The notes under the pieces are model-generated. The model was not told the origin of the DNA. It searched no databases and worked only from the letters and a program-made list of their open reading frames with translations. This document shows, piece by piece, positions 13,749-51,022 of a stretch of DNA of 64,000 nucleotides (positions are counted from its first letter, which is position 1; each line of letters opens with the position of its first letter). Origin of the DNA: Candidatus Woesearchaeota archaeon (GTDB lineage: Archaea; Nanobdellota; Nanobdellia; Woesearchaeales; JABGUJ01); NCBI GenBank assembly GCA_018646625.1, contig JABGUJ010000001.1:5534-69533 (forward strand), read 5' to 3'. The translations under genes were made by a program, and so were the position numbers.

Positions 13749-13823
13749 AGCGGGGTAGGGCAGCCAGGAGTGCCCGTCGGGCTCATAACCCGGAGGTCGG
13801 AGGTTCAAATCCTCTCCCCGCTA
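13749..13823 (+). tRNA. Initiator tRNA-Met (anticodon CAT)
   Basis: Cloverleaf read by hand: acceptor AGCGGGG/CCCCGCT with A1:U72, anticodon loop CTCATAA, G29-31:C39-41 in anticodon stem, T-arm GGAGG-TTCAAAT-CCTCT, discriminator A, no encoded CCA. Confidence 0.85.
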
Positions 13824-28755: not shown

Positions 28756-28868
28756 CTTAACGCCAAAACACCTACTTCACCAAGAGCAAAATAAAGATAT
28801 AAAACATCCCCCACCCCGCAGGGGGTTGAATAGAAACACTTAAATAGAATTCAAGCTATAAAACCCCT

Positions 28869-47277: not shown

Positions 47278-47859
47278 ATGAAAACAATCGAAATATTCAC
47301 AAGAAGCGAATTTAGAACATGGCTAAAAAAACACCATAAAACAGAAAACAAAGTAGCAGTTGTAATACATAAAAAACACACTTCTAAACCATCCCCGACT
47401 CATAGAGAACTAATGGAAGAAGCCATATGCTTTGGATGGATAGATACAACTGTAAAAAGGTTAGATGAAGATAGATACATCCGAAATTTTACTAAAAGAA
47501 ATAATAATAGCAAATGGAGCAATAATACAATCAGATATGCGAAAGAGTTGGTTAAACAAAAAAGAATGAGGCCTCAAGGCTTAAAATATTACAAAGAGGG
47601 ATTAGCAAAGCCAACACACGATTTTGGCATACCTAGAAAACCCACCATGCCAGACGAATTAAAAAAATCTTTAGCTAGAGATAAAAGAGCCAAGTCCGGC
47701 TTTGAAGAATATCCTCCTTCAACAAAAATAATGTTTTATAGGTGGATATTGCGTGGAAAAAAAGAAGAAACAAGAGCCAAACGAATAAAGATAACTATTG
47801 AAAAAGCTAAAGCAGGAAATAGGGATGTCTTTACTACTTCTCAAAAAATCAATCAATAG
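47278..47859 (+). CDS. YdeI/OmpD-associated family protein
   Basis: FRTWLKKHH...AVVIHKK...EAICFGWIDT matches the YdeI-family N-terminus; start chosen at internal ATG 47278 rather than ORF-track 47197. Confidence 0.5.
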   Translation: MKTIEIFTRSEFRTWLKKHHKTENKVAVVIHKKHTSKPSPTHRELMEEAICFGWIDTTVKRLDEDRYIRNFTKRNNNSKWSNNTIRYAKELVKQKRMRPQGLKYYKEGLAKPTHDFGIPRKPTMPDELKKSLARDKRAKSGFEEYPPSTKIMFYRWILRGKKEETRAKRIKITIEKAKAGNRDVFTTSQKINQ

Positions 47860-47893
47860 ATAGTAATTAGGTAGCGCATTAGAACATAAAAAA

Positions 47894-48042
47894 TGCGCCG
47901 GCCGGGACTTTCGACAATAGCAGGTTTGACAGTCCCACAAGGAGACCAACTGGTCAGTTTTTACAACATCAACCCGCCAATTCTTTCGAACCCGGATCAA
48001 AGGCTTGGAAGGCCTCTATCCTAGCCATTAGACTACCGGCGC
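47894..48042 (-). tRNA. tRNA-Gly (anticodon TCC) interrupted by an intron of about 74 nt located in the T-loop (position 59/60)
   Basis: Hand-folded: GCGCCGG acceptor paired with CCGGCGC 149 nt away; D-arm TAGTCTAATGGCTAGGATA; anticodon stem-loop GAGGC-CTTCCAA-GCCTT; T-stem CCGGG...CCCGG split by AGAATTGG...GTCGAAAG, with the TCGAAAG heptamer repeated at both junctions; discriminator A, no CCA. Confidence 0.6.
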
Positions 48043-48068
48043 ATAGAACCAGAAAAAAATTAGTGGAT

Positions 48069-49130
48069 TTATAAGCCTTTCGACTTACTTAGCTCTTCTC
48101 TAAACTGTTCCATAAATCTATCAAAATCCCTCAAAGACACAGAAGCACCGCAAGCCAAATCATGACCACCGCCGTTACCTTCTATCCCCACCAAAGCCTT
48201 TTTCAAAATATTAGAAATATTAACTTTACTTGACCTCAAACTTAACTTCATATCGCCAGACTTTTCTCTACCCAACATAATAATCTTAGTAGGAAAAAGA
48301 TATAACATTTCATTAGATAATTCTTTTGTAAAACTATTTCTATCAGCCCTATAAGCATAAAACAAAATTTTATCTTTAGTTGCTGCTTTCTTCGCTTCAT
48401 TCAAAATCTCATCATACTCAACTTTAAGCTTCTCATAACGTTTGTAAATATACTTGCCTCGTGGAGTTTCTTGATTCAATATCTCATAAGGTGAAGCAAT
48501 CCTTGTAAGAATCTTAATACACTTCATAGCCTCATCTGTTTTCCCTTTGAGTATAAAAGAAACAACTTTAACCAATTCACCTAACTTAGAATCAAACAAA
48601 GCTTGAGGAGGAGTTTTAATTTTCTTAGATAACAAATCAGGATATTGCGCAATAAATTCATCTTTAAAATCAGGCAAATACCAATCACCAACACAACCCA
48701 TCATTGCAATCCACAAATCATGTTTCACAACTTGATAAGCCATACAACTTGTTGGTTGAATTTCGCCACGCGTTCTAGAATTAAAATATTCAACTTTATC
48801 CATATTTTGTGGTTCGTGATGATCTAACCAAACTACAGGAATATGAACTCTATCTAAAAAGTCTTGGCTAACTAAGGGTTTATCCAATATAAAAATCTTA
48901 TCAGGATCATACTCTTCAACCTTTTTAAGAAACTGTGGAGTAACTTCAGGAGAATTTTTCACCATTACTCCGCGCCCTTCACGCAAATACCTGTAGAACA
49001 AAAGAAAAGATGCAGTCCCATCCGGATCTGAATCAAAAAGAAACAAAGGTCTAGTACAATGATCTAATTCGTCTTTTATTTTGATTAATTGCTTTTGAGA
49101 TAAAACCATGGAAACACGACTCCTAGCCAA
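48069..49130 (-). CDS. DHH/DHHA1 phosphoesterase (NrnA/RecJ-like)
   Basis: DHH motifs DSDPDG and LDHHEP, DHHA1 motif GGGH (GIEGNGGGHDLACGA). Confidence 0.75.
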   Translation of the reverse strand: MARSRVSMVLSQKQLIKIKDELDHCTRPLFLFDSDPDGTASFLLFYRYLREGRGVMVKNSPEVTPQFLKKVEEYDPDKIFILDKPLVSQDFLDRVHIPVVWLDHHEPQNMDKVEYFNSRTRGEIQPTSCMAYQVVKHDLWIAMMGCVGDWYLPDFKDEFIAQYPDLLSKKIKTPPQALFDSKLGELVKVVSFILKGKTDEAMKCIKILTRIASPYEILNQETPRGKYIYKRYEKLKVEYDEILNEAKKAATKDKILFYAYRADRNSFTKELSNEMLYLFPTKIIMLGREKSGDMKLSLRSSKVNISNILKKALVGIEGNGGGHDLACGASVSLRDFDRFMEQFREELSKSKGL

Positions 49131-50949: not shown

Positions 50950-51022
50950 AGCCTCTGGAGGGAATTGAACCCTCGATCTCTCGATTACAAGTCGAGTGCA
51001 TTAGCCGCTATGCTACAGAGGC
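50950..51022 (-). tRNA. tRNA-Thr (anticodon TGT)
   Basis: Hand-folded: GCCTCTG/CAGAGGC acceptor, D-arm GCAT-AGCGGCTA-ATGC, anticodon CTCGA-CTTGTAA-TCGAG, T-arm GAGGG-TTCAATT-CCCTC, discriminator U. Confidence 0.85.

Follow-up and report, generated by a model that had tools for sequence, protein, structure and literature searches.

A Woesearchaeota tRNA-Gly(UCC) gene with a 77-nt insert at T-loop position 59/60, very probably a protein-spliced intron

A 64,000-nt stretch of a Candidatus Woesearchaeota archaeon genome (DPANN; assembly GCA_018646625.1, contig JABGUJ010000001.1, hereafter the window) carries a tRNA-Gly(UCC) gene at 48042..47894 on the minus strand (149 nt) whose T-loop is interrupted by 77 nt. 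We are highly confident, judging from the sequence, that this is a functional gene expressed as one precursor, with a bulge-helix-bulge (BHB)-type, protein-spliced intron at position 59/60. The argument is built on the gene anatomy, on the structure of the exon/intron junction and its conservation with covariation among relatives, and on orthology to an intron-less gene. An initial annotation of the window had proposed such an interruption, and its span was exact, as was the acceptor stem; the position 59/60 is borne out by the tRNA call of ARAGORN on the spliced form, by comparison with the intron-less orthologue and by the folds, and the intron length, put at about 74 nt, had to be corrected. 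Read 5′ to 3′, the gene is GCGCCGG UA GUCU AAUGGCUA GGAU A GAGGC CUUCCAA GCCUU UGAU CCGGG UUCGAA (77 nt) U CCCGG CCGGCGC A, with the following elements.

48036..48042 and 47895..47901, minus strand: acceptor stem GCGCCGG/CCGGCGC, 7/7 paired
47985..48042, minus strand: 5′ exon, positions 1-59, 58 nt with a 4-nt variable region (direct reading; Rfam tRNA model; ARAGORN after splicing)
48007..48009, minus strand: anticodon UCC, positions 34-36 (position table; ARAGORN tcc)
47908..47984, minus strand: intron, 77 nt, between A59 and U60 (placed by BHB geometry and the need for a 7-nt T-loop, UUCGAAU)
47894..47907, minus strand: 3′ exon, comprising U60, CCCGG, CCGGCGC and A73 (direct reading)
47894, minus strand: discriminator A73 (direct reading)
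48067..48074, minus strand: TATA-box-like TTATAAAT, centred about 28 nt upstream of G1, a putative promoter element
47888..47893, minus strand: T6 run immediately 3′ of the discriminator, a likely archaeal terminator

Every stem of a class-I tRNA is found in the exons. The 5′ exon holds the acceptor 5′ strand, U8 and A9, the D arm (stem GUCU/GGAU), the anticodon arm (stem GAGGC/GCCUU, loop CUUCCAA), the 5′ half of the T stem (CCGGG) and T-loop residues U54 to A59 (UUCGAA); CCA is not encoded in the 3′ exon. Removing the 77 nt in silico yields a canonical 72-nt tRNA with a 7-bp acceptor stem, 4-bp D stem, 5-bp anticodon and T stems, 7-nt loops and a T-loop of the form UUCRANN, and ARAGORN then calls tRNA-Gly(tcc). 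Archaeal glycine identity elements are C2:G71, G3:C70 and discriminator A73, and the gene reads G1:C72, C2:G71, G3:C70 and A73. G+C content is 45% in the intron and 61% in the exons, against about 35% for the window.

Unspliced, the gene is missed both by ARAGORN, which calls nothing, and by Rfam at the gathering threshold; in E-value mode Rfam matched the 5′ part alone, with 22.7 bits. An anchored search pattern for an interrupted T arm has one match in the window versus none expected in 100 shuffles, and the minimum-free-energy (MFE) fold of the precursor has z = −4.5. Three independent assemblies of different origin (ENA ERZ27237601, NCBI GCA_018673515.1 and JGI 3300004111) carry the identical gene and insert with 0 mismatches, which rules out an assembly artefact.

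Unconstrained and cloverleaf-constrained folds of the precursor (minimum −63.0 versus −58.1 kcal/mol) agree on the structure of the T arm and intron, and both contain the hBH-type motif for which the initial annotation had suggested folding the junctions. Its parts are as follows.

T stem CCGGG/CCCGG, minus strand: exon-exon helix of the motif (folds)
47986..47990, minus strand: T-loop U54 U55 C56 G57 (A58), 5′ strand of the central BHB helix (MFE and constrained folds)
47910..47914, minus strand: intron (U)CGAA, 3′ strand of the central helix, within the second copy of an apparent repeat discussed below (folds, relatives)
47907..47909, minus strand: 3-nt bulge A G/U60, with the predicted 3′ splice site between 47908 and 47907 (folds, 22 aligned junctions)
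47979..47985, minus strand: 5′ splice-site region, A59 followed by intron AGAAU, unpaired opposite UUG (47917..47915), with the predicted cut between 47985 and 47984 (folds)
47918..47979, minus strand: intron body, an imperfect helix of 47979..47965 with 47934..47918 (4 G-U pairs of 15) capped by the hairpin GACC-AGUU-GGUC (folds)
47944..47955, minus strand: apical 12-nt element of the intron, GACCAGUUGGUC, self-complementary only via G-U pairs

At the 3′ splice site, a 3-nt bulge separates the T stem from the 4-bp helix UUCG:CGAA; A58 is paired or unpaired depending on the fold, and the intron folded alone reaches −23.4 kcal/mol. Under the BHB rule (Marck & Grosjean, Li/Abelson), cuts fall two nucleotides into each 3-nt bulge flanking a 4-bp helix. 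Applied to the folded junction, the rule places the cuts after A59 and before U60, and exons joined there have the canonical T-loop UUCGAAU. In structure, 59/60 corresponds exactly to 37/38, both being nucleotides 6/7 of a 7-nt loop on a 5-bp stem. The predicted motif is a relaxed BHB of the hBH/bulge-helix-loop (BHL) class with a strict 3′ half (classes as in PMC3239211 and PMC6379350).

The heptamer TCGAAAG does occur at both junctions, at 47989..47983 and 47914..47908 on the minus strand, as first noticed. Its reading as splice-site ambiguity is not upheld, because cuts made at the same offset in each copy would yield a T-loop of 9 nt. TTCGAA is its own reverse complement, which makes the intron stretch pairing with T-loop positions 54-58 resemble a direct repeat; in relatives with a UUCAAA T-loop the intron carries the complement UGAA and there is no repeat.

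Directly upstream of the tRNA gene, and on its strand, lies the following neighbour.

48069..49130, minus strand: DHH/DHHA1 phosphoesterase gene

An NCBI protein of "Candidatus Woesearchaeota archaeon" matches its product at 100% identity across 98% of the query open reading frame (ORF), and the remaining homologues are from Woesearchaeota or Nanoarchaeota. The TATA-like box of the tRNA gene sits at the 3′ end of this DHH gene and covers its last codons. In the Woesearchaeota genome B3_Woes (L005), an intron-less tRNA-Gly(UCC) (L005:4064-4135) lies directly downstream of the DHH orthologue at equal spacing, with the TATA-like box TTTATAAAG at the same distance as in the window. The spliced window tRNA is identical to the L005 tRNA-Gly(tcc), as called by ARAGORN, at 65/72 positions, and five of the seven differences are in the acceptor stem, where pairing is kept across the intron (4:69 from C-G to G-C, 5:68 from C-G to U-G and 7:66 from G-C to A-U). 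Because these acceptor changes are compensated across the intron, the two exons belong to a single functional gene, and the insert was gained or lost in a lineage-specific way. The DHH/tRNA-Gly synteny itself is patchy: the closest DHH homologues outside the window's species (L001-L004, 56-57% identity) have no tRNA downstream, and the more distant L005 homologue (52%) keeps the arrangement.

Relatives of the interrupted gene were collected by two scans, one of genomes (one genome per species, with the tRNA-Gly(UCC) anticodon and T arms followed by a gap of 60-90 nt) and one of metagenomes (CCGGGTTCGAA, a gap of 45-75 nt, then TCGAAAGTCCCGG). Both are pattern-based with a fixed T arm CCGGG/CCCGG, miss shorter introns and other T-arm sequences, and give no measure of T-loop intron frequency. 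Between them they added about 60 tRNA genes with an interrupted T-loop (Gly, Ala, Glu, Asp), most of them from DPANN archaea. With 59/60 already listed among the recurrent non-canonical intron positions (PMC4090602) and published in DPANN (PMC3239211), the description of a T-loop intron as uncommon was overstated.

The genome scan comprises 47 loci, of which 21 are interrupted at 59/60 with junction pairing and a 22nd (L046) without it. The 59/60-interrupted loci come from Woese-, Nano-, Micr- and Aenigmatarchaeota and from metagenome-assembled genomes (MAGs) labelled otherwise, with inserts of 13-85 nt. Among single-intron homologues, very different acceptor halves are still 7/7 complementary across the insert. 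T-loop positions 54-57 are fully paired with intron positions −6..−3 in 18 of the 21 junction-pairing loci (19/22 with the window), and a change of G57 to A57 is accompanied by a compensatory C to U change in the intron; the pair 58:−7 is formed only in a subset that includes the window. In an ungapped alignment of 22 tRNA-Gly(UCC) junctions the 54-57 : intron(−6..−3) helix is 94% paired, the pair 57:−6 being GC in 11, AU in five and GU in one, and the 3-nt bulge (two intron nucleotides plus U60) is present in 22/22. Sliding the partner columns lowers the pairing of T stem plus helix from 97.5% to 17-69%. Matches labelled Woesearchaeota include both intron-less (L005, L007, L047) and intron-containing genes (the window, L040, L045).

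The metagenome scan added 40 loci, namely tRNA-Gly(UCC), Gly(CCC), Ala(GGC, CGC), Glu(UUC, CUC) and Asp, and its tRNA-Gly(UCC) loci often have a second intron at 37/38. Introns at 59/60 were seen in tRNA-Ala(GGC) (L059), Glu(CUC) (L069), Glu(UUC) (L091), Asp(GUC) (L065/L071), Ala(CGC) (L090) and Gly(CCC) (L056/L061/L068/L078/L079/L087), and many of these non-Gly(UCC) genes also carry a second intron at 37/38 or further upstream. Recognisably homologous introns are common to different tRNAs (Gly/Ala and Gly/Glu), as would be expected if introns transpose or are copied between genes.

Given these observations, we infer the following course for transcription, cleavage and ligation. A single precursor would be transcribed from the TATA-like box and end at the T6 run. 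The T stem, the 3-nt bulge A G/U60 and the 4-5 bp helix U54-G57(A58):(U)CGAA would form the hBH part of a BHB, at which an archaeal EndA would cut between A59 and the first A of the intron and between the last G of the intron and U60. An RtcB-type ligase would then join the exons into the T-loop UUCGAAU (exon junction GGGUUCGAA-UCCCGG), the excised intron would probably be circularised (back-spliced junction GUCGAAAG-AGAAUUGG), and CCA would be added after splicing.

The intron may have relatives of its own. In alignments defined in this analysis (A2/A3/A5), a family of 17 distinct introns, hosted by tRNA-Gly(UCC) and one tRNA-Ala(GGC), has the layout AGAAGAGGUUUAGCUUAGAAAAUCC-NNNN-GGUUAGC-hairpin-GUAAAACCUGUCUCGAAAG (also written AGAAGAGGUUUAGC...GUAAAACCUGUCUCGAAAG). 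Its loci in A2/A3 are L040, L043, L031, L057, L059, L060, L063, L064, L066, L067, L070, L072, L080, L081, L083, L086 and L092. Members share a three-helix core with a closing helix, a covarying hairpin (5-8 double changes per pair) and conserved junction bases. A second family "hairpin", CC-NNNN-GG (CCNNNNGG, 8 nt), has four loop bases that form a perfect palindrome in 7/7 variants (AATT, ACGT, TGCA, CTAG, GCGC, AGCT, ATAT), implying at least six compensatory double changes. The middle two bases of the palindrome have no possible partner within one molecule, which points either to an RNA duplex between molecules or to a mutational bias that corrects palindromes.

Sequence comparisons suggest that the window intron may be a distant member of this family. 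A covariance model (CM) of the family with T-arm flanks gives the window intron 52.5 bits, compared with 70-103 for members and 22-40 for unrelated T-loop introns, and nhmmer on the intron interior ranks it as the top match in the window, with E = 0.014. With the core-only CM it reaches 14.9 bits (E = 0.22 over the window) and does not surpass a chance match at 28820-28868, the best in the window at 15.9 bits, which lacks the palindromic hairpin. The apical GACCAGUUGGUC may correspond to the family CCNNNNGG, an equation made by eye; both CM alignments set the family hairpin about 3 nt upstream of it. No second intron copy was found in the window (CM R1), and a search of the window for a stand-alone core (core-only CM R2, filters off) returned chance-level matches only.

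Outside tRNA genes, three core copies were seen in relatives (L086:3741-3822 on the minus strand, L057:8256-8348 on the plus strand and L060:329-405 on the minus strand). Each lies about 0.8-1 kb downstream of an intron-bearing tRNA-Gly on the same contig and strand, and has a long terminal stem with a 3-nt bulge, an upstream conserved GGTGGTAAGAAAT-plus-TATA-like motif and a T-run after it. Their sequences have the appearance of an independent small-RNA gene that is a paralogue of the intron. Rfam has no match for the family introns or for the stand-alone copies, and none of the identities tried by eye for the latter (K-turn or C/D RNA, H/ACA RNA, disguised tRNA, 5S rRNA) fits. The central helix of their BHB-like stems has 4, 5 or 6 bp, and their processing by EndA is uncertain.

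These data bear on whether the window intron doubles as the carrier of a structured small RNA with a function of its own, which EndA and ligase would release and perhaps circularise. This proposal draws on the conserved core, covarying hairpin and invariant junction bases of a related 59/60 family in two tRNAs, on the palindrome kept in every variant, on the promoter-like box and T-run of each non-tRNA copy, and on the intermediate score of the window intron with its flanks and its nhmmer match. We nonetheless consider it improbable for the window, at something like a one-in-several chance: the core-only score is at chance level, some of the junction bases conserved in the family differ, CCAGUUGG is no palindrome as DNA, the window has no stand-alone copy, Rfam matches neither form, and the family core is itself without known function. 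More speculative by a step is the thought that the 77-nt insert is more than a spacer, that the family CCNNNNGG hairpin is kept self-complementary and that the released, possibly circular RNA dimerises; we rate this lower still. If true, T-loop introns in reduced genomes would be delivery vehicles for a new small-RNA class, and the family would connect an independent gene with how tRNA introns arise and move.

Several points weigh against splicing of the window gene as we describe it. Its 5′ site is predicted to lie in a 6x3 internal loop, where a strict hBHBh′ motif would have a clean 3-nt bulge closed by the intron-intron helix h′. When 56 distinct T-loop introns were folded under a constraint on the 3′ half, six had a strict 5′ site (4-bp helix and clean 3-nt bulge), 26 a 5-bp helix with a 2-nt bulge and 24 a more relaxed site, with the window at the relaxed end. 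Efficient cleavage there is an assumption of the model, and the predicted loop agrees with the initial annotation that an endonuclease tolerating relaxed BHB motifs would be needed. No EndA homologue was found among the 337 window ORFs of at least 50 aa (phmmer; the M. jannaschii EndA query was validated at 371 bits against PDB 1a79). Published work restricts efficient cutting of relaxed motifs to EndAs with specificity-broadening insertions, and DPANN EndAs, alpha4 types included, carry the L3 loop, which is associated with many disrupted tRNA genes (PMC5829648, PMC6379350). Lastly, the gene could be a pseudogene if a second, intact tRNA-Gly(UCC) lies elsewhere in the genome; its perfect exons, orthologous position and conserved junction make this unlikely.

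A specific pseudogene scenario, in which a miniature inverted-repeat transposable element (MITE)-like sequence inserted into the gene, with TCGAAAG as a 7-bp target-site duplication and the intron helix as terminal inverted repeats, appears very unlikely to us. The insert is indeed flanked by a 7-nt direct repeat and is a long imperfect foldback, and an insertion of this appearance is found in a haloarchaeal match. Yet taking out the insert together with one copy of the repeat gives a T-loop of 9 nt, and only the BHB sites restore UUCGAAU; the four G-U pairs in the intron helix are complementary as RNA only; the UUCAAA relatives have a complement without a repeat; both exons are perfect and covary across genomes; and the gene occupies the orthologous slot of an intron-less one. 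The haloarchaeal case (L046:3437-3552, Halobacteriales MAG QS_3_64_16) is a tRNA-Gly(UCC) with its T-loop split by 80 nt, a 9-bp direct repeat GTTCAATTC and no T-loop complementarity or BHB pairing. It looks like a true insertion with target duplication and a probable pseudogene, a contrast to the window intron.

Separate transcription of two halves joined in trans, as in Nanoarchaeum equitans, has precedent in the split and permuted tRNAs of DPANN and Thermoproteales (PMC3218864, PMC3239211), but we give it practically no credence, as the halves are collinear on one strand 77 nt apart, the intervening sequence self-folds, no TATA-like box precedes the 14-nt 3′ exon, and the unit as a whole is bounded by a single TATA-like box and a single T-run. 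Two further identities for the insert were tried and rejected. For a C/D-box small RNA (sRNA), UGAUGU and CUGA lie 8 nt apart and are not conserved in relatives, and Rfam has no C/D match at the locus. Group I and group II ribozyme cores measure at least about 200 nt, against 77 nt here, and at E <= 10 Rfam matched tRNA and nothing else at the locus.

Some observations stand beside these results. At about nine of the 47 genome-scan matches, an intact tRNA-Gly has, 50-90 nt further downstream, a repeat of the 13-14 nt that end the tRNA, namely TCCCGG plus the acceptor 3′ strand (trailing-copy loci L010, L014, L019, L025, L029, L034, L036, L037, L041 and L047; the tRNA-Gly(UCC) of L014 itself has a 13-nt intron at 59/60). 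The hosts are haloarchaea, Methanosarcinales-labelled MAGs, Nanohaloarchaea and Woesearchaeota, the spacers are without a BHB junction, and the copies may be remnants of integrase att-site duplications. In the window, standard tools find two tRNAs in the 64 kb, both intron-less: tRNA-Thr(UGU) at 50950-51022 on the minus strand and tRNA-Met at 13749-13823 on the plus strand, which has A1:U72 and a GGG/CCC anticodon stem and which we take from these to be of the archaeal initiator type. An Rfam E-value scan of the 64 kb gave these two intact tRNAs and tRNA-Gly(UCC), and no further hidden tRNA. A 93-aa ORF with a TTG start (47719-48000) shares the strand of the tRNA-Gly gene and covers most of it; almost certainly this ORF is spurious, but a gene caller could annotate it instead of the unrecognised tRNA.

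The practical weight of the finding lies in annotation. tRNA-Gly(UCC) reads GGA/GGG codons, and with such a gene invisible to ARAGORN and to the Rfam gathering threshold, automated annotation of this and many related DPANN genomes may report a "missing" tRNA. In a survey that included a Woesearchaeota genome, Kaneta et al. took incomplete tRNA sets of new DPANN genomes to suggest undetected disrupted genes (PMC5829648), and for its BHB models of non-canonical introns tRNAscan-SE 2.0 drew on training data from Crenarchaeota, Euryarchaeota and Thaumarchaeota but none from DPANN (PMC8450103). The gene adds a long relaxed-BHB T-loop substrate from Woesearchaeota for models of DPANN EndA specificity, and the collected homologues, with intron-less and intron-containing Woesearchaeota orthologues and intron families across tRNAs, are a dataset for intron gain, loss and transposition. 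Wider weight would follow only if the intron and stand-alone RNA family is functional and the window intron is a member of it.

Among known systems, the canonical hBHBh′ intron at 37/38 (Marck & Grosjean 2003, cited in PMC6379350) is the structural template: a 5-bp stem carries a 7-nt loop cut at nucleotides 6/7, loop nucleotides 1-4 pair with the 3′ end of the intron, and a 3-nt bulge with the 3′ splice site follows. The window intron differs in lying in the T arm, in having a 6x3 internal loop in place of the 5′ bulge, and in that its precursor disrupts the mature-domain elbow that some EndAs use as a ruler. Like the euryarchaeal tRNA-Trp intron, which delivers a C/D-box sRNA, it is a long structured tRNA intron that may act after excision, but it has no conserved C/D boxes. 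The non-canonical BHB introns of Thermoproteales are mostly short. They are protein-spliced, use sites that include 59/60, transpose between tRNA genes and are homologous across tRNA species (Sugahara 2008, Fujishima 2010, summarised in PMC4090602), the last as in our collection; those hosts, however, belong to the TACK superphylum and have an (alpha-beta)2 EndA with the L1 loop.

Another close parallel is ARMAN-2 (Candidatus Micrarchaeum acidiphilum), also DPANN, with T-loop insertions at 59/60 and a relaxed hBH motif. Its pre-tRNA-Cys(GCA) has a 13-nt hBH intron at 59/60 that is cleaved in vitro by its own epsilon2 EndA, and its pre-tRNA-Pro(GGG) is interrupted at both 53/54 and 59/60 (Fujishima et al. 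2011, PMC3239211). The tRNA and the lineage differ, the 13-nt Cys intron compares with 77 nt and a long internal helix in the window, and cleavage was assayed in vitro for the epsilon2 EndA but is predicted from sequence in the window. The kind of gene is thus already known, and the window adds a new, long example of it from a lineage in which one expects such genes and annotation of them is poor.

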